The translations under genes were made by a program, and so were the position numbers. DNA of 64,000 nt from Ostreococcus lucimarinus (taxonomy: Eukaryota): NCBI GenBank assembly GCA_000092065.1, contig CP000591.1; one strand, written 5' to 3'. Every line of letters starts with the position of its first letter. The stretch's first letter is position 1. Of this stretch, positions 35,868 through 57,785 are shown in pieces. The notes below the pieces were generated by a model. It saw only the letters and a program-made list of their open reading frames with translations, did not search any database and was not told the DNA's origin.

Positions 35868-35983
35868 TGACCCAGGCAGGAGTCGAACCCGCAACCTTCA
35901 GATAACTTCAACGGCGTCCTCGCGTTCGCGAGGAGACTCTCGAATCACTGGAGTCTGACGCACTACCATTGTGCTACCGAGCC
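35868..35983 (-). tRNA. tRNA-Trp (anticodon CCA) with 44-nt intron at the canonical 37/38 position
   Basis: Minus-strand cloverleaf: GGCTCGG-TA-GCAC-AATGGTA-GTGC-G-TCAGA-CTCCAG[44-nt intron]A-TCTGA-AGGTT-GCGGG-TTCGACT-CCTGC-CTGGGTC-A. A-box and B-box present. The oligo-T pol III terminator is on the minus strand; on the plus strand it appears as AAAAAAA around 35836-35842. Confidence 0.8.
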
Positions 35984-40648: not shown

Positions 40649-40661
40649 ATGGGCGCCGCGC

Positions 40662-40723
<62 letters not shown>

Positions 40724-41467
40724 CCGCGCGACGCCGCGCGCGCGTCGTCGTCGCCGCCGGACGACGACGCGCCGACGCTCGCGCGCGCGCGCGAGGACGA
40801 CGCGACGCTGCGAACGAGCGAACCGTTGTTGACGCCGCGCGTGGCGCGCGCGCTGCGAGCGCGCGTCGAGCCGAGGGCGGGCGCGGTGACGTGGACGCGC
40901 GCGTTCGATTCGCGCGCGTGCGGATTGGCGAGTCTTCGTCGCGTCGTCGAGCGGTGCGCGGGCGTCGGACGCGCGCTCGTGCTCGTGCAACCCGAGGCGG
41001 CGGACGAGGCCGAGGCCGAGGACGAGGACGAGGCGTACTACGTCGCGCACGTCTCACCGGGTTTCCAAGCGAAGCCTCGGCACGATTTCCACGGCGACGA
41101 CGCGTGCAAGACGTTTCGCGTCGACGGAAAACGCGGCGTCGTCGTCGACACGTCCGGGGTCTCCGTCGCGCCGCTGTATTGCGCGTACGGCTACTCCCGA
41201 CACGGCGACGTCGTCAACGGGTTCGGGATGTTCGGTAAGATCGGGCGCCACGCCTTATTCGTGGACGCCGCCCTGGAAAACGCGCACGCGGACTTCGGCG
41301 CGCGTCGCTTCTCCGTGCGTCGCGTCGAAGTCTGGGCGCTTGAGGCGCGCGCGCCCGGAATCGACGCCGGCGCTTCGCCGCGCGCGGCGACGCGCGATCG
41401 AGCGACGATGGCGCAGTTTACGTCATCCGCGATCGCCCGCGACGTCCTCGACGCCACGACCGGCTGA
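40649..41467 (+). CDS. Hypothetical protein with N-terminal (SSP)8 repeat; its last 293 bp form the start of the 945-bp repeat R
   Basis: ATG at 40649 followed by (CCGTCGTCG)n encoding PSSPSSPSS.... C-terminal region ...RRFSVRRVEVWALEARAPG.... The ORF is continuous across the left boundary of repeat copy A (41175). Unknown family. Confidence 0.4.
40661..40726. repeat. 9-bp microsatellite (CCGTCGTCG)x7, coding (SSP)n on + and read as (ATT)n in the antisense UGM track ORF
   Basis: Directly visible tandem 9-mer. Confidence 0.85.
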
Positions 41468-41480
41468 CATCAAGACCGCG

Positions 41481-41655
41481 ACGGAACGTCGAGGAAAGAT
41501 CTCGTCGACGCGCTGTTTCGCGAGTGCGGCGGACCAGAAGGTGTGGGAGGCGCTGACGGATACGCGCGGCGTACGAGGCGACGTTCGCGGCGATTGAGGA
41601 CGCGCGTCGCGCGAGATAGATGATAGATTGATACTAGATAGATCTGATGCAGCTC
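41481..41655 (+). pseudogene. Pseudo-copy of the 3' end (last about 45 codons plus about 40 bp of 3' UTR) of the ENY2-like gene at 50492..50875, embedded in repeat R copy A
   Basis: CGTCGAGGAAAGATCTCGTCGACGCGCTGTTTC...GTGTGGGAGGCGCTGACGGATACGCG...GCGTCGCGCGAGATAGAT...AGATCTGATG matches 50705-50920, with an 18-bp deletion between GCGGAC repeats and a few substitutions. Out of context and not in an ORF with a start. Confidence 0.6.
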
Positions 41656-41663
41656 CTAGGCAG

Positions 41664-41684
41664 TCTCCTACGCGGTAGGAGACC
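41664..41684. other. Perfect 9-bp inverted repeat with 3-nt loop (GTCTCCTAC-GCG-GTAGGAGAC) hairpin
   Basis: Located exactly where homology to the 50.7-kb locus ends inside repeat R. Duplicated at 44101-44121. Confidence 0.7.
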
Positions 41685-41806
41685 TTGTTGTAACATACGA
41701 TGTACGACGGATCCAAAAAGTGCGAGCACGTCACCGTCGACGACCCGTCCTCGAGCGCGCGAGCGCGACGCGCCGTTTTCAGTGACAAAAAAGAATGGCA
41801 ACTTTG

Positions 41807-41993
41807 TTACCTCACCGGGATTCGAACCCGAGTCTGTTCGTGGAAGCGCGTGGCGTGTCCGTCAGTGTCGCGTTCACAATTTTTGGTGTCAACGTGTCCG
41901 TTCGCGTGTTCACGTGCGATGGGCGCGAAGATGCGTAGAATACGTACCTCTAGGGTGAAAGCCTAGCGTGATAACCATCTACACTATGAAGTA
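41807..41993 (-). tRNA. tRNA-like pol III gene (cloverleaf with anticodon UUC, Glu-like; Val-like D-arm) interrupted by a 115-nt insertion in the variable loop; within repeat R copy A
   Basis: Minus strand: TACTTCA-TA-GTGT-AGATGGTTA-TCAC-G-CTAGG-CTTTCAC-CCTAG-AG[GTACGT...115 nt...CAG]AC-TCGGG-TTCGAAT-CCCGG-TGAGGTA-A. All four stems pair; U33 and A37 are present. A-box TAGTGTAGATGG and B-box GGTTCGAATCC. T6 terminator 15 nt downstream (plus-strand A-run 41787-41792). The insert at 41834-41948 has GTACGT, ACTGAC and CAG. Confidence 0.45.
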
Positions 41994-42119
41994 CCGCTCG
42001 ACCCCGCAAGGGGCCGCAGCGATCGATCTCTCCGATGTTTCGGAGTTCACGGGATGTACTCATGTTTCAGCTCGTCCACACTTTCGTGTGGCTAGATAGA
42101 GATGTGTGCGGCTTGACAC

Positions 42120-42170: not shown

Positions 42171-42359
42171 GCGTCGTCGCGCGTCGTCGCTCGCGGGTGC
42201 GCGCGCGGCGCCATCACCGCGCGCCGCGAAGTGACGACGCCCGCGCCGCTCAGGAAAAATTTATATATCGCCCCTTTAGAGAGTACCTACACACATGACG
42301 AGTCATGAACCAAGGATGCGGGGAGATCTCGCCGTCGGCGCCACTCGTCGCCGCATACG

Positions 42360-43376
42360 ATGACCGATTCAGTCGCGCACGCCTCACCGACGTGGAGAAC
42401 GTACTCATTAGACCCGTCGCTGCAACCGGACTGGATGAACGGCACGGCGGAGGTAGAGGCGGTCAAAACAGCGGAGGATGAACTCGAGCGCTCGTACAAG
42501 AACAAGCCATTCTTCAAGAACACAAGCTACGAGGCATTCGCCAGAAAACGAGGCGAGTATGATAAACCGACGCCCGACGGCCTCGAGGAGTTCAAGCGTC
42601 TCCTACGGGCGAGTTATCTTCGCACCGTAGAGCGCATCGATGAAGATACCCAAGTTCTGGAAGCCCAGCTACAAGACGAGAATATCTCTGAAACGCGACG
42701 GTCGGTTATCCCGCAGCACATCGAGGACACTCGTGCGAAATTAAAAGAGCAAGACAATTCATTGAACGCGCTGTGCGCCGATGTGGATGCGGTTATCGCA
42801 GATTTGAAAGGCTTGCCCGATAAAATTGCCGACATAAAAGAACACGCCTCTGAACAACTTCAGCAACACAAAAGAAAAAGAACCAGTATATCTTTGGAAC
42901 GCAACCTCGAGGAGCTGAGCGATGCGCTGCGCAGCTACGAGGCGAAAAAAGAACAGGAGAGGCTCACAATTACCGATTATCGTGGGAAATATGGGTCATG
43001 TCCATCCCAGTATGTTCGCCAGACCGCCTGGGCACGCAGACCTTCTGGTCGTGAAGAAATTAGCTTCATTGTTCATCCTGTGGGTGTCATTGGCTGCGAT
43101 GGCAGTAACCTGAGCGTTGATGGACGTGTTTCGATTGATGGTTATGGTGAGTTTAACGTACCAAAATGGCAGCCTGAATGGGGACCTGAGAAGCAAATGT
43201 GTGCGTGCGAATGCTTCCAAGAGTGGTACAAAGTCGACGCCCAAGACCTTCTTTACAGCGCGCTTCGTGGCGTAGAGGGCGCGCTAAAGGCGCTCAGTGG
43301 TTCGGGAGATGACACGTCTTCGCTTCGACGGCGCTTGGGCGATGCCAATTTGGACGAAGCAAGCACGGGGAGTTAA
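42360..43376 (+). CDS. Orphan 338-aa ORF with atypical (lower-GC) codon usage, central coiled-coil-like region, Cys/Trp-rich C-terminal part
   Basis: ATG at 42360, uninterrupted 1017 nt in a region where lower GC makes chance ORFs of this length unlikely. No recognisable domain. Confidence 0.5.
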   Translation: MTDSVAHASPTWRTYSLDPSLQPDWMNGTAEVEAVKTAEDELERSYKNKPFFKNTSYEAFARKRGEYDKPTPDGLEEFKRLLRASYLRTVERIDEDTQVLEAQLQDENISETRRSVIPQHIEDTRAKLKEQDNSLNALCADVDAVIADLKGLPDKIADIKEHASEQLQQHKRKRTSISLERNLEELSDALRSYEAKKEQERLTITDYRGKYGSCPSQYVRQTAWARRPSGREEISFIVHPVGVIGCDGSNLSVDGRVSIDGYGEFNVPKWQPEWGPEKQMCACECFQEWYKVDAQDLLYSALRGVEGALKALSGSGDDTSSLRRRLGDANLDEASTGS

Positions 43377-43410
43377 TATATGTGGACGTATATTTTGTTG
43401 TCCACGAATG

Positions 43411-43437
<27 letters not shown>

Positions 43438-43447
<10 letters not shown>

Positions 43448-43611
43448 CGCCTCCAGTCTCGACACAGTATCACTGAGTTCACTGCGAAGTTCGTCGATTT
43501 GCTGATCTCTCGAGGCAACGGCGGCCTCTAAATCGGCGATTTGAGCGTCGTGCTCGACGATTCTTTCGTGCAGCTCCTGGTTTGACTTGACGAGCACAGG
43601 AATGATTTGAG
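43438..43611 (-). pseudogene. 5'-truncated minus-strand ORF remnant (coiled-coil-like ...ELHERIVEHDAQIADLEAAVASRDQQIDELRSELSDTVSRLEAVESG*) cut off by the boundary of repeat copy B
   Basis: Open frame ends with TAG at 43438-43440 (plus-strand CTA) and runs without a start into the R boundary at 43611/43612. Low-GC composition like the adjacent ORF. Confidence 0.35.
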
Positions 43612-44556
43612 TGTATTGCGCGTACGGCTACTCCCGACACGGCGACGTCGTCAACGGGTTCGGGATGTTCGGTAAGATCGGGCGCCACGCCTTATTCGTG
43701 GACGCCGCCCTGGAAAACGCGCACGCGGACTTCGGCGCGCGTCGCTTCTCCGTGCGTCGCGTCGAAGTCTGGGCGCTTGAGGCGCGCGCGCCCGGAATCG
43801 ACGCCGGCGCTTCGCCGCGCGCGGCGACGCGCGATCGAGCGACGATGGCGCAGTTTACGTCATCCGCGATCGCCCGCGACGTCCTCGACGCCACGACCGG
43901 CTGACATCAAGACCGCGACGGAACGTCGAGGAAAGATCTCGTCGACGCGCTGTTTCGCGAGTGCGGCGGACCAGAAGGTGTGGGAGGCGCTGACGGATAC
44001 GCGCGGCGTACGAGGCGACGTTCGCGGCGATTGAGGACGCGCGTCGCGCGAGATAGATGATAGATTGATACTAGATAGATCTGATGCAGCTCCTAGGCAG
44101 TCTCCTACGCGGTAGGAGACCTTGTTGTAACATACGATGTACGACGGATCCAAAAAGTGCGAGCACGTCACCGTCGACGACCCGTCCTCGAGCGCGCGAG
44201 CGCGACGCGCCGTTTTCAGTGACAAAAAAGAATGGCAACTTTGTTACCTCACCGGGATTCGAACCCGAGTCTGTTCGTGGAAGCGCGTGGCGTGTCCGTC
44301 AGTGTCGCGTTCACAATTTTTGGTGTCAACGTGTCCGTTCGCGTGTTCACGTGCGATGGGCGCGAAGATGCGTAGAATACGTACCTCTAGGGTGAAAGCC
44401 TAGCGTGATAACCATCTACACTATGAAGTACCGCTCGACCCCGCAAGGGGCCGCAGCGATCGATCTCTCCGATGTTTCGGAGTTCACGGGATGTACTCAT
44501 GTTTCAGCTCGTCCACACTTTCGTGTGGCTAGATAGAGATGTGTGCGGCTTGACAC
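43612..44556. repeat. 945-bp direct repeat R, copy B (duplicate)
   Basis: See copy A. Ends 144 bp upstream of the USP39 start codon. Confidence 0.9.
44244..44430 (-). tRNA. Second copy of the tRNA-like gene with 115-nt insertion (in repeat R copy B)
   Basis: Identical to 41807-41993 shifted by 2437 bp. Confidence 0.45.
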
Positions 44557-44700
44557 CGCACATCTGATGAATGACTGTGCGCTAAACTTTTTCACCCAGA
44601 AATCGCGTCGACGGACGCGCGAATGTTACGGTCGGGCGTGACGTGTTTTCGCACGCCGCGCGCCGCGCGTCGTCGCGTTCGTCGCATTCCGCACTTCGCG

Positions 44701-46101
44701 ATGCCGCCGCGAAAGCGCGCGCGCGAGGCTTCGGGCGACCCGGTCGAAACAGAGGAGGGTTCAGCGCGCGCTCGGGATTCGACCGAACCGCCGTCGACCA
44801 CCGCGCCGTCGGCGCCGTGCCCGTACCTGGACACGGTGAACCTCGCGAACCTGGATTTTGACTTTGAGAAGCGGTGCGCGGTGTCGCTGTCGCCCGTGCA
44901 CGTGTACGCGTGCTTGGTCTGCGGCAAGTACTTCGCGGGACGAGGAAAGAAGACGCACGCGTACGCGCACGCGCTGGAGTGCGGACATCACGTGTTCATG
45001 CGCCTGGCCGACGGCGCGGCGTGGTGCCTGCCGGATGGGTACGAGGTGGTGGACGAAGGGACGACGCTGTCGAGGATTCGAGACGTGCTCGCGCCGACGT
45101 ACGCGAAAAAGTACGTGGAGGAAGAGATCGAGGGCGCGCGACCGATGTGGCGGCGCGCGCTGGACGGCACGGAGTTTCTCGTCGGCGTCGTCGGATTGAA
45201 CGCGATTTGGAGCAAACGCGACGACGGCGTGAGCGCGGTGCTGCAATCGCTGAACAGAGTGGCGCCGCTGCGGCGCGCGCTGTTGCTCGACGACGCGAGG
45301 GAACGCGAGGACGTCTATCGCGCCTTGGCGGACATCACGAAGAAGATTTGGAACGCGCGAAATTTTAAAGGTCACTCGAGCCCGCACGAGTTCATGCAAG
45401 CGGTTCGAAATCGATCGAAAGACGCGTTCGGCGCGGAGACGGGGAACCACGACGCCGCGCAGTTCTTGCGTTGGTTGCTCAACGAATTGATTCGCGACGA
45501 AAAGAAACGCGGCGAAAAGCGATCCGTCATTCAGTCGTGTTTCCAGGGAGAAGTGGAAATCATCGACGATTCGTCCGCGTCGCGCGCGTCGCCGTTCCTC
45601 ATGCTCTCGATGGACCTCCCGAACGCGCCGCTGTTTCAAGACGTCATGGAGAAGAACATCATCCCGCAAGTCTCCCTCGAGCGCGCGCTGCTGAAGAAAT
45701 TCGACGGCGTCACCGCGGACCCCAAGACGCGGCGCAGGTTCAAGATCACCAAGCTCCCAAACTACTTGATCGTGAATTATTCGCGCTTCACCAAGAACAA
45801 CTTCTTCGTCGAAAAGAACCCGACCATCGTGACGTTTCCGACGCGGGGGCTGAACCTCGCCGATCACATCCCGGTGCCGAGAGGGGACGAAAATTCGGCG
45901 ACGTACGATTTGATCGCCAACATCGTGCACGACGGCGCGCCCGACGACGGGTCGTATCGCGCCATGGTGTACCACGCGCCGGATAAAAATTGGTACGAGA
46001 CGCAGGATTTGCGCGTCGCCGAGGTGTTGCCGCAACAAGTCAACCTCACGGAGACGTACGTGCAGATTTACGAGCGTCGAGACAAGCGACGAGACGCGTA
46101 G
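44701..46101 (+). CDS. USP39: USP39/Sad1 (U4/U6.U5 tri-snRNP-associated protein 2; zinc-finger UBP plus inactive UCH domain)
   Basis: CPYLDTVNLANLDFDFEKRCAVSLSPVHVYACLVCGKYFAGRGKKTHAYAHALECGHHVFMRL matches the USP39 ZnF-UBP block. UCH-like domain follows. ATG at 44701. Confidence 0.85.
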   Translation: MPPRKRAREASGDPVETEEGSARARDSTEPPSTTAPSAPCPYLDTVNLANLDFDFEKRCAVSLSPVHVYACLVCGKYFAGRGKKTHAYAHALECGHHVFMRLADGAAWCLPDGYEVVDEGTTLSRIRDVLAPTYAKKYVEEEIEGARPMWRRALDGTEFLVGVVGLNAIWSKRDDGVSAVLQSLNRVAPLRRALLLDDAREREDVYRALADITKKIWNARNFKGHSSPHEFMQAVRNRSKDAFGAETGNHDAAQFLRWLLNELIRDEKKRGEKRSVIQSCFQGEVEIIDDSSASRASPFLMLSMDLPNAPLFQDVMEKNIIPQVSLERALLKKFDGVTADPKTRRRFKITKLPNYLIVNYSRFTKNNFFVEKNPTIVTFPTRGLNLADHIPVPRGDENSATYDLIANIVHDGAPDDGSYRAMVYHAPDKNWYETQDLRVAEVLPQQVNLTETYVQIYERRDKRRDA

Positions 46102-50491: not shown

Positions 50492-50875
50492 ATGCCTCGC
50501 CCCACCCCCGCGCCGCCGCCGCCGCCGGCGGCGCGCGACGTCGACGTCGAGCGCGACGCGCTCACCGCGATGCGCAAAGACGGCACGCTCGACGCCCTGC
50601 GCGCGCGCGCGGTCGAGCGCGTTCGCGCGGACCCAGAGATGAAAACCTTCACGGAATTCGCGGCGCGCGCGTCGCAGACGCTGCGCGACCCGCGAGCGAG
50701 GCGCGCGTCGAGGAAAGATCTCGTCGACGCGCTGTTTCACGAGTGCGGCGGACAGATTTTGAAGCAGGCGGACCAGAAGGTGTGGGAGGCGCTGACGGAT
50801 ACGCGCGACGAACTCGGCCGCGCGGCGTACGAGGCGACGTTCGCGGCGATGGAGGACGCGCGTCGCGCGAGATAG
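50492..50875 (+). CDS. Small (127-aa) ENY2/Sus1-like protein (tentative); source locus of the gene fragment copied into repeat R
   Basis: ATG at 50492. Pattern ..KDGTLDALRARAVERV.. and ..KDLVDALFHECGGQILKQADQKVWEAL.. loosely follows ENY2 helices. The last about 45 codons and 3' UTR recur at 41481-41655 and 43918-44092. Confidence 0.45.
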   Translation: MPRPTPAPPPPPAARDVDVERDALTAMRKDGTLDALRARAVERVRADPEMKTFTEFAARASQTLRDPRARRASRKDLVDALFHECGGQILKQADQKVWEALTDTRDELGRAAYEATFAAMEDARRAR

Positions 50876-51157
50876 ATACCGATAGATAATAGATTGATAA
50901 TACATAGATCTGATGTAGCTGATGCCGCCGCCGTCGCGTCGGACGGATCGCCTCGGTCGCCTTCGGTTCGCTTCTCGGCGGCGGCCGCCGACGCGGACGC
51001 CGCCGCGCGTCGCGGTCGTCATGCGCGCGGTTGTGCGGCGACGATTTATTTTACGCCGCGCGACGGGCGAGCGACGCCGGCGAATCGAGCGACGCTGAAT
51101 GCCCGTACGCTGGAATCGCGCGCGAACGCTGACGCGACGATTCGTCCGAGTGGGTGG

Positions 51158-57259: not shown

Positions 57260-57785
57260 GGCCGCCGCGGTGCGCCGTCGTCGGCGGCGGCGTCGCGTCG
57301 GCGTCGCGGACGCGAGTCCCCTCCGATCGACGAGTGCTGACCCACGAACACGTATTTAAGCCACAAAACGCCACTGTAATCGAACCGCGCGACGCGAGTC
57401 CCCTCCGATCGACGAGTGCTGACCCATAAACACGTATTTAAGCCACAAAACGCCCGCGTAATCGAACCGCGCGACGCGAGTCCCCTCCGATCGACGAGTG
57501 CTGACCCACGAACACGTATTTAAGTCACAAAACGCCCGTGTAATCGAACCGCGCGACGCCGACCCCACCCGCGCGCGCGACGCGGCGCGCCATTCGACGC
57601 CGCTCGAGGTGCGCGACGCGACGCGACGCGACGGCGCGACGCGCGAAACCCGACGAACGATGGCGACGATCGACGCGACGGCTCGCGGCGCGGGCGCGCG
57701 CGACGACGGCGCGACGCGACGGCGAACGATGACTGACGCGAGGCGATCACGCCGTTTGCGCAGAGACGGAAATCGCGCACGCGCG
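57260..57785. promoter_or_regulatory. Divergent promoter region between DJ-1 (minus) and VDAC (plus), containing the 82-bp x3 repeat with TATTTAAG motifs
   Basis: Position between two divergently oriented start codons. TATA-like motifs repeat three times. This is inference only. Confidence 0.4.
57312..57557. repeat. 82-bp tandem repeat x3 in the DJ-1/VDAC divergent promoter region
   Basis: Units start at 57312, 57394 and 57476, with about 95% identity. Each carries CACGTATTTAAG (TATA-like) and, on the other strand, GGTTCGATTAC (B-box-like). Confidence 0.85.

Follow-up and report, generated by a model that had tools for sequence, protein, structure and literature searches.

The transfer RNA gene tRNA-Glu(UUC) in a 64,000-nucleotide (nt) stretch of Ostreococcus lucimarinus (contig CP000591.1, assembly GCA_000092065.1; this whole stretch is called the window below) is interrupted in its variable loop by an insert that bears the splice signals of the host's spliceosomal introns. 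We consider it probable, at roughly 0.7, that the insert is a lineage-specific U2-type spliceosomal intron of 114-117 nt, located between nt 45 and 46 of a functional tRNA gene whose transcript probably comes from RNA polymerase III (Pol III). The gene is complete, it carries all three splice signals and is followed by a terminator, its exons are conserved among relatives, and the insert was gained in this lineage. Two copies are present in the window, and their parts are the following.

41807-41993, minus strand: tRNA-Glu(UUC) copy 1, with exon 1 at 41948-41993, intron at 41834-41947 and exon 2 at 41807-41833; Rfam RF00005, 41.5 bits.
44244-44430, minus strand: tRNA-Glu(UUC) copy 2, with exon 1 at 44385-44430, intron at 44271-44384 and exon 2 at 44244-44270; Rfam RF00005, 41.5 bits.
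41834-41947, minus strand: spliceosomal-type intron of copy 1, 114 nt, with GTACGT at 41942-41947, ACTGAC at 41861-41866 (branch A at 41862) and CAG at 41834-41836.
44271-44384, minus strand: identical intron of copy 2, 114 nt, with GTACGT at 44379-44384, ACTGAC at 44298-44303 (branch A at 44299) and CAG at 44271-44273.
41787-41792, minus strand: T6 run, a Pol III-type terminator, starting 15 nt past the tRNA 3' end; its twin is at 44224-44229.
44431-44545, minus strand: structured 5' leader of copy 2, mncR67-like, with the motif ATCTCTATCTAGCC at 44527-44540, a GNRA-loop hairpin and a second hairpin that ends one nt before tRNA position +1.
41994-42119, minus strand: leader of copy 1, with the motif at 42090-42103; it is truncated where the repeat stops, 126 nt upstream of the tRNA.
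41175-42119, no strand assigned: copy 1 of a 945-bp direct repeat, containing the 3' end of a TLDc-like gene (40649-41467), the spacer, the tRNA gene and 126 nt of leader.
43612-44556, no strand assigned: copy 2 of the 945-bp direct repeat.

The locus is a genuine nuclear tRNA-Glu(UUC) gene of a clade A-like Ostreococcus. With the insert present, both copies reach 41.5 bits against a gathering score of 29 for the Rfam RF00005 covariance model, and the alignment places the whole insert as one block between model positions 44 and 45. Exon 1 (46 nt) and exon 2 (27 nt), freed of the 114-nt insert, form a 73-nt tRNA with the variable loop AGAC. Read on the minus strand, the acceptor stem is TACTTCA/TGAGGTA with discriminator A, and the D stem is GTG(T)/(T)CAC with a U13.U22 mismatch, a position where mismatches are common. 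The anticodon arm is CTAGG-CTTTCAC-CCTAG with anticodon UUC, and the T arm is TCGGG-TTCGAAT-CCCGG. From sequence reading, the B box (GGTTCGAATCC) and an A-box-like element (TAGTGTAGATGG) are intact, and the gene copies contain the sequence GGCTTTCACCC.

The original prediction, made from the letters alone, had drawn this cloverleaf with its B box, anticodon TTC and a T6 run 15 nt downstream, and both the Rfam score and direct reading agree with it. Its 73-nt product with a 4-nt variable loop AGAC is identical to the uninterrupted gene of a relative (L014), which scores 63.3 bits and thus passes the proposed covariance-model check after removal of the insert; the insert itself measures 114 nt rather than the 115 nt first given. 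The idea of chimeric identity elements finds no support, since all orthologues share one and the same D arm and each spliced sequence is classed by ARAGORN as tRNA-Glu(ttc). In default mode ARAGORN finds 0 genes in the window. With its intron option it proposes a tRNA-Gly with a 106-nt '37/38' intron, which we rejected as spurious. The only other tRNA that Rfam finds in the window is a tRNA-Trp (35868-35983, minus strand) with an ordinary 37/38 intron.

The two 945-bp repeats that carry the gene are direct, 100% identical and 1492 bp apart, with a period of 2437 bp, so that the insert stands in both copies, as had been claimed. The same two-copy layout is present in an independent metagenome contig (L004) and is therefore no assembly artefact, and the single tRNA copy in the close relatives L008-L012 and L020 implies that the duplication is very recent. 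The repeat also duplicates the last 97 codons of the TLDc-like gene. Copy 2 retains the native upstream neighbour USP39, and copy 1 is without native sequence beyond 126 nt upstream. The two copies thus result from one local 945-bp duplication and not from a dispersed repeat; before it, there was probably one tRNA-Glu(UUC) gene per genome. A tRNA-derived short interspersed element (SINE) or tRNA-like repeat found no support, as each relative genome has one syntenic locus with a complete tRNA and not a degenerate head. The labels 'tRNA-like', 'tRNA-derived' and SINE-like in the original prediction accordingly give way to a syntenic, bona fide gene with invariant exons and compensatory changes.

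The junctions of the window insert read GAG/GTACGT and CAG/A (slashes mark splice sites), with CACTGAC between them and the branch A 28 nt from the intron end (31 nt in L008). The reference introns of the window, three or four in the VDAC gene (57.6-59.2 kb) and one at the start of AP-3 beta (59.56-59.85 kb), have G/GTGCGT or G/GTACGT, ACTGAC 25-34 nt before the acceptor, and YAG; the resemblance noted in the original prediction therefore holds. For Mamiellophyceae, the reported intron consensus is AG/GTGCGT and NCTGAC, with GACTGACG as the Ostreococcus form (PMC3879977). The insert has the U2-type features, that is, a 5' splice site AG/GTRCGT and a branch NCTGAC spaced to a YAG acceptor, and its removal in silico restores an intact host, 73 of 73 nt being those of the uninterrupted orthologue.

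These signals are not a matter of chance. On both strands of the window ACTGAC occurs 10 times, five of them in the reference introns, two in the tRNA inserts and three elsewhere. With the insert boundaries set independently, by the cloverleaf, multiplying the frequencies that the three signals have in the window gives 1.2e-7 for a random 111-117-nt segment, and in 128 kb the two tRNA inserts are the only segments of that length to combine all three signals. A chance origin of the three splice signals is excluded; the suggestion that a non-canonical intron merely mimics them is very unlikely. The 37/38 intron of the window tRNA-Trp, in keeping with the original prediction, and that of a relative (L025) have none of these signals.

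Syntenic loci were obtained through the neighbouring USP39/SAD1-like protein (44623-46101), whose sequences were sorted into groups; given the synteny and an identity of 60-69%, we read these as Ostreococcus lineages. The protein's 90% cluster includes a member named Ostreococcus sp. 'lucimarinus', which points to a clade A-like Ostreococcus for the window. All long loci compared preserve the surrounding gene order, with DNA polymerase alpha subunit B, UDP-galactopyranose mutase and TLDc-like genes on one flank of the tRNA and USP39, a signal-peptidase-like gene and glycosyltransferase family 10 on the other. In L008-L017 a single tRNA copy lies 200-450 nt upstream of USP39 on the opposite strand, and the tRNA-Glu gene holds this position in five lineage groups; contigs L022 (group II) and L029 (group VI) stop before the tRNA. 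The forms of the gene are these.

Group I (window, L001, L004-L006, L008-L012, L019-L021): 114-117-nt GT...AG insert at nt 45/46.
Group IV (L014-L016): uninterrupted 73-nt gene, 63.3 bits, equal to window exon 1 plus exon 2 base for base.
Group IV (L013): uninterrupted, 61.6 bits, with four substitutions, two of which form a compensating pair.
Group IV (L017): 113-nt insert GTACGT...ACATACTGAC...CAACAG at nt 60/61 (T loop/T stem); removal gives the identical 73-mer.
Group III (L023, with L024 partial): 111-nt insert GTGAGT...CCACTGACC...GTAG at nt 70/71, in the acceptor stem.
Group II (L025, 2614-2714, minus strand): ordinary 28-nt 37/38 intron without GT-AG.

Since an uninterrupted orthologue stands at the syntenic place, the tRNA gene was there first and the window insert was gained in its own lineage. 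Presence and absence differ between close lineages, as L017 of group IV has an insert and L013 and L014 of the same group have none, and all three inserts are sense-oriented. At their three sites they all start with GTRNGT, have CTGAC 23-31 nt from the end and finish in YAG, and their lengths of 111-117 nt are shorter than those of the other window introns (about 154-300 nt). The spliced junction would be GGGUUCGAAU/CCCGG in L017, where the intron splits the B box and the gene falls below the Rfam gathering threshold, and UGGAG/AAA in L023. The L023 insert holds CACTGAC and ends in TAG, and its removal yields U1-A72, U2-A71 and discriminator A73, like all orthologues. As judged from these alignments, there are at least two further gains of similar introns at other sites of the tRNA-Glu gene. 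In an Rfam scan of the window, L017, L023 and L025 at E <= 1, no further tRNA fragments were found. As a side observation, the orthologous gene exists in five states, namely intronless, with a canonical tRNA intron, and with GT-AG inserts at three sites.

Variation among close relatives was counted in alignment columns of the window, L008, L012 and L020, which are 92-98% identical overall. None of the 73 exon columns varies, compared with 6 of 117 in the intron (four events), 6 of 126 in the leader (one indel), 9 of 16 in the 3' trailer, 64 of 348 in the downstream intergenic DNA and 44 of 820 in the neighbouring coding sequence. Exons differ clearly from intron, trailer and intergenic DNA combined (0/73 versus 79/481, or 16%; Fisher p = 8e-6), and no variable intron column falls in GTACGT, ACTGAC or the terminal CAG. 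Across the lineages, four distinct spliced sequences form standard pairs at 80 of 80 positions; eight pairs show compensatory changes, among them pair 2-71, which spans the L023 intron. These comparisons indicate that the tRNA-Glu gene is under selection with the intron in place. Intron conservation within L008-L012 was rejected as a proof of selection, for these genomes are 97-98% identical over the whole region. We also observed that, among close relatives, the GT-AG insert varies less (5%, 6/117) than the tRNA-Trp intron (12/51) or the intergenic DNA (18%, 64/348), which could reflect intron function, a recent sweep or gene conversion.

The same data bear on the possibility that unrelated DNA has inactivated the gene, so that a disrupted pseudogene with irrelevant splice-like signals remains and another tRNA-Glu(UUC) gene serves the cell. 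For the window lineage the data are DNA sequences of this locus and its relatives, and the truncated upstream region of copy 1 would suit a pseudogene. Nevertheless, we regard this as quite improbable. Exons without a single change next to non-coding DNA varying at 16%, a sense-oriented set of three host splice signals whose joint chance is ~1e-7, and two more lineages with separate inserts, like signals and intact covarying exons all argue against it, as do the maintained T-run terminator and leader hairpins and the minimal tRNA gene sets of the group. Mamiellophyceae have 33-51 tRNA genes in all (PMC3673656), which makes a redundant Glu(UUC) gene unlikely.

Another possibility is a non-canonical tRNA intron of the archaeal or red-algal type, cut by the endonuclease at a relaxed bulge-helix-bulge and sealed by tRNA ligase, with GT...AG as a coincidence. 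The check for such a motif at the insert boundaries, which the original prediction had proposed, was run with the criterion of position 37/38 or of junctions at which a 4-bp helix lies between two bulges of 3 nt. For the window insert, the strict search found no cut register with at least 3 of the 4 central-helix pairs, and the mirror topology gave no full 4-bp central helix. A relaxed score of 5, versus 3.7 +/- 1.2 for shuffled introns, comes from a weakly discriminating test. The minimum-free-energy fold of the precursor shows no bulge-helix-bulge motif and is as stable as shuffled sequences (z = -0.5), which implies that the insert forms no stable extra arm. Ostreococcus does have permuted tRNA genes processed via bulge-helix-bulge motifs (PMC3978253), and weak motifs are possible for the L017 and L023 inserts in the relaxed scan. 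The negative results on the window insert, together with GTRNGT, CTGAC and YAG in three inserts and in neither of the two 37/38 introns, make this explanation very unlikely.

We now turn to transcription of the gene. In all lineages a T4-T7 run starts +1 to +34 past the tRNA 3' end, in trailers that are otherwise unalignable; by background chance, TTTT would be present in 5.7% of 25-nt stretches. No run of four or more T is found inside any of the three GT-AG inserts or, from the alignment, in the window leader. A terminator in every lineage and inserts free of such runs indicate Pol III, which is most likely the polymerase.

Upstream of the tRNA, groups I and IV have the motif CCTCTCTAYCTAGCC 97-105 nt ahead of position +1. 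The truncated contigs L022 and L029 contain it as well, and it is separated from the USP39 start by anything between 83 and 213 nt. In the window it has 2 matches versus 0.15 expected. The motif is followed by a GNRA-loop hairpin and then by the second hairpin that ends one nt before +1. The leader is likewise present in L014 (9798-9915, minus strand) and L017 (1321-1443, minus strand), and its alignment analysed with RNAalifold supports 17 pairs, six with compensatory change, with G.U pairs on the tRNA strand and compensation in both hairpins. The Rfam scan mentioned above assigned the leader to no known family.

In O. tauri, Ot-mncR67 is an RNA of 107 nt (supplement of PMC7671301), and both a dicistronic mncR67-tRNAGlu precursor and tRNAGlu have been detected by Northern blot (bioRxiv 10.64898/2026.07.10.737489), which is indirect evidence for a mature tRNA in the window lineage. 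The published Northern probe target, CTCTACTAGCGCACGG..., has CTCTACTAGC in common with the leader motif; the probe sequence verbatim is absent from all loci compared. By its sequence, position and length of ~107 nt, the window leader matches Ot-mncR67; it may be simply a leader released by RNase P. Such a dicistronic precursor makes the primary transcript long (leader, tRNA and trailer), and would thereby provide a flanking exon for the spliceosome even in L023, where three tRNA nt follow the intron. We further note that this repeated intron acceptor is the divergent neighbour of USP39/SAD1 (start at 44623), the gene of a tri-snRNP spliceosome protein; the adjacency is probably a coincidence.

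A variant of our explanation, differing in the polymerase only, is that RNA polymerase II (Pol II) makes a non-coding host transcript from a promoter common with USP39, which is spliced co-transcriptionally like a pre-mRNA before the tRNA is excised. Excision of a tRNA-like RNA from a Pol II transcript has a parallel in mascRNA. The conserved, structured leader without an AT-rich or TATA-like sequence just upstream, which the window tRNA-Trp gene has, would agree with Pol II, as would the split B box of L017 and an O. tauri precursor longer than a usual pre-tRNA. The tRNA-Sec of T. brucei is also made by Pol II (PMC2943599). Set against these are the T4-T7 run right after the tRNA in all lineages despite unalignable trailers, the lack of T>=4 in the window leader and the three inserts, and the intact A and B boxes of the window gene, so that we consider Pol II rather unlikely. 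The original prediction had proposed a spliceosomal intron invading a tRNA-derived sequence, possibly within a longer Pol II RNA; the invasion is supported by synteny and splice signals and the longer RNA by the leader; Pol II is not indicated, given the conserved T-run.

According to the preferred explanation of a spliceosomal intron in a functional tRNA gene, transcription, most likely by Pol III, would start with the structured leader of ~107 nt (the mncR67-tRNAGlu precursor) and terminate at the T-run. The spliceosome would read AG/GTACGT, ACTGAC and CAG, the intron would leave as a lariat, and ...CCCUAGAG would be joined to ACUCGGG... to give the normal 4-nt variable loop. RNase P and RNase Z could then free the 73-nt tRNA. 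As to its source, an excised intron most likely reverse-spliced into the transcript, or into an R-loop of this highly transcribed gene, and two other lineages would have made similar gains of their own, independently, at nt 60/61 and at nt 70/71.

Several points weigh against this reading. The spliceosome is normally recruited in connection with Pol II, and it is unusual for a Pol III transcript to be spliced efficiently. Splicing, the lariat and the mature 73-nt tRNA are, for the window lineage, what we infer from DNA, and the polymerase and the mode of insertion are deduced likewise. The difference between exons and intron alone (0/73 versus 6/117) is non-significant (p = 0.08), owing to the unusual conservation of the intron. 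Elsewhere in the clade-A genome there may be another tRNA-Glu(UUC) gene that is uninterrupted, the comparison having covered individual loci. Lineage assignments are based on metagenome contigs and one named cluster member. L023 can alternatively be read as an uninterrupted tRNA; this unspliced reading scores 55.2 bits but has a U1.U72 mismatch, G as discriminator and no nearby terminator. Finally, the relaxed bulge-helix-bulge scan has low power, since its two canonical-intron controls score only 1-2 standard deviations above shuffles, one of them with its cut site set one nt off.

The origin of the insert was traced by similarity searches. With blastn-short and nhmmer, no second copy was found in 345 kb of window plus loci; an exact-match search of metagenomes of the Joint Genome Institute (JGI) with the 23-nt intron core returned three contigs, only of this tRNA locus, and viral contigs gave 0 matches. 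An abundant introner family, which the original prediction had considered along with other repeat families, was rejected on account of these searches. There is no target-site duplication at the insert junctions beyond a trivial AG, and no terminal inverted repeats were seen when the ends were compared by eye; this pattern suits reverse splicing more than DNA transposition.

Stripped of their splice signals, the window and L017 inserts have cores that are collinear over ~58 nt with a local score of 17, compared with 7.5 +/- 1.4 for random window segments; three empirical nulls gave 0/3000, 8/3000 and 0/2000, and nhmmer detected no link between the two inserts. Homology of the two is suggestive only. 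A bolder proposal is that mncR67-tRNA-Glu is a recurrent target of spliceosomal introns in an intron-poor genus, with at least three independent insertions (45/46, 60/61 and 70/71), a Pol III precursor spliced by the spliceosome, and homology of the 45/46 and 60/61 introns, a single intron having moved inside this small RNA, or into it, by reverse splicing. We offer it as a tentative possibility. If it were true, the cell would depend on the spliceosome for an essential tRNA, and the 45/46 and 60/61 introns would provide a natural, datable example of intron transposition.

Other features of the window were noted in passing. A segment of ~1.37 kb (42248-43615) between the tRNA repeats contains an open reading frame (42360-43376, 338 amino acids) that has no Pfam match, and the segment is without terminal inverted repeats. 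It is 99.8-100% identical in contigs L001 (9810-11256), L003 (3766-5216) and L006 (1-1442), where it has other neighbours (an SMP/MCM neighbourhood, RAI1) and is turned round with respect to the tRNA. We take it for either a cassette that can move or invert or a rearrangement hotspot. Downstream of the tRNA, an element of 140-170 nt (41487-41654, equal to 43924-44091) has ~75% identical copies at 50780-50920 and in L008 (16988-17161), and is possibly a small dispersed repeat. Just upstream of VDAC (57400-57560), there are two tandem copies, ~82 nt apart, of (C)CCCTCCGATCGACGAGTGCTGACCCA..AACACGTATTTAAG.CACAAAACGCCCG.GTAATCGAACCGCGCGACGC.

Reviews keep the intron classes of eukaryotic nuclei apart: spliceosomal introns belong to Pol II transcripts, and it is the tRNA splicing endonuclease that removes tRNA introns (for example bioRxiv 10.1101/2025.06.17.660180). 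In the literature searched we found no report of a spliceosomal intron in any tRNA gene, and a 2026 review of tRNA genes in photosynthetic organisms mentions none (PMC13578239). This class boundary would be crossed if an essential tRNA gene, probably present in one copy, contained a spliceosomal intron, and tRNA would join the short list of non-mRNA hosts, namely U6, other small nuclear RNAs (snRNAs) and ribosomal DNA (rDNA). The sister-lineage alleles of one 73-nt gene, uninterrupted, differently interrupted or canonically interrupted, would constitute a compact system for intron birth, at which reverse splicing and R-loops at highly transcribed Pol III genes could be tested as routes, and so could efficient spliceosome action on Pol III transcripts. 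For annotation the locus is a warning that tRNA finders miss such genes (ARAGORN found 0, and Rfam missed L017) and that published Ostreococcus tRNA sets were incomplete.

Among known systems, permuted and non-canonical tRNA genes with bulge-helix-bulge motifs occur in Cyanidioschyzon merolae, Ostreococcus, Micromonas and Crenarchaeota (PMC3978253, PMC13578239). The present genes have in common with these an interruption outside 37/38 (in the variable loop, T arm or acceptor stem), occurrence in the same group of algae and a failure of standard tRNA finders to detect them. The junctions of the known genes, however, have a bulge-helix-bulge and no GT, branch or AG, and the window insert shows the reverse. 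Introner elements (IEs) of Micromonas (IE-A to IE-D, ABC-IE and E2-IE; PMC3879977, PMC4540971) resemble it in recent sense-oriented gain, presence/absence variation and the signals GYRNGU, (G)ACUGAC and CAG, and for them, too, insertion into R-loops by reverse splicing has been proposed. In contrast to the window insert, of which no second copy was found in the sequences searched and which has a weak similarity to the L017 insert, introners exist in tens to thousands of near-identical copies in Micromonas protein-coding genes and are reported absent from Ostreococcus.

The transcript organization is like that of mncR67-tRNAGlu of O. tauri, in which a non-coding RNA of ~107 nt directly upstream of tRNA-Glu is part of one precursor; in its main text, the preprint on O. 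tauri does not mention an intron in this tRNA-Glu gene. Dicistronic genes of a tRNA and a small nucleolar RNA (snoRNA) are reportedly known in plants from work by Kruszka and colleagues in 2003. Spliceosomal introns in ascomycete rDNA (Bhattacharya et al. 2000, as cited in PMC5855946) likewise occupy a gene not transcribed by Pol II and are patchily distributed among relatives, but the polymerase there is Pol I, and the host RNA and taxon are different.

The closest precedent is the U6 intron of fission yeast. Introns of the mRNA type are known in U6 genes (S. pombe, Rhodotorula) and in U1, U2 and U5 snRNA genes (Tani and Ohshima 1989, 1991; reviewed in PMC5855946). Splicing of S. pombe U6 has been demonstrated, whereas that of tRNA-Glu is what we infer. 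A tRNA, unlike U6, is no component of the spliceosome, so that the insertion is not accounted for by 'proximity to the catalytic centre', and tRNAs have a dedicated intron-removal system, which would be bypassed here. As in the snRNA genes, the gains are lineage-specific, vary in position and are thought to come from reverse splicing, and tRNA-Glu shares with fungal U6 a short, conserved non-coding RNA gene, transcribed by Pol III in the case of U6, that bears pre-mRNA splice signals.

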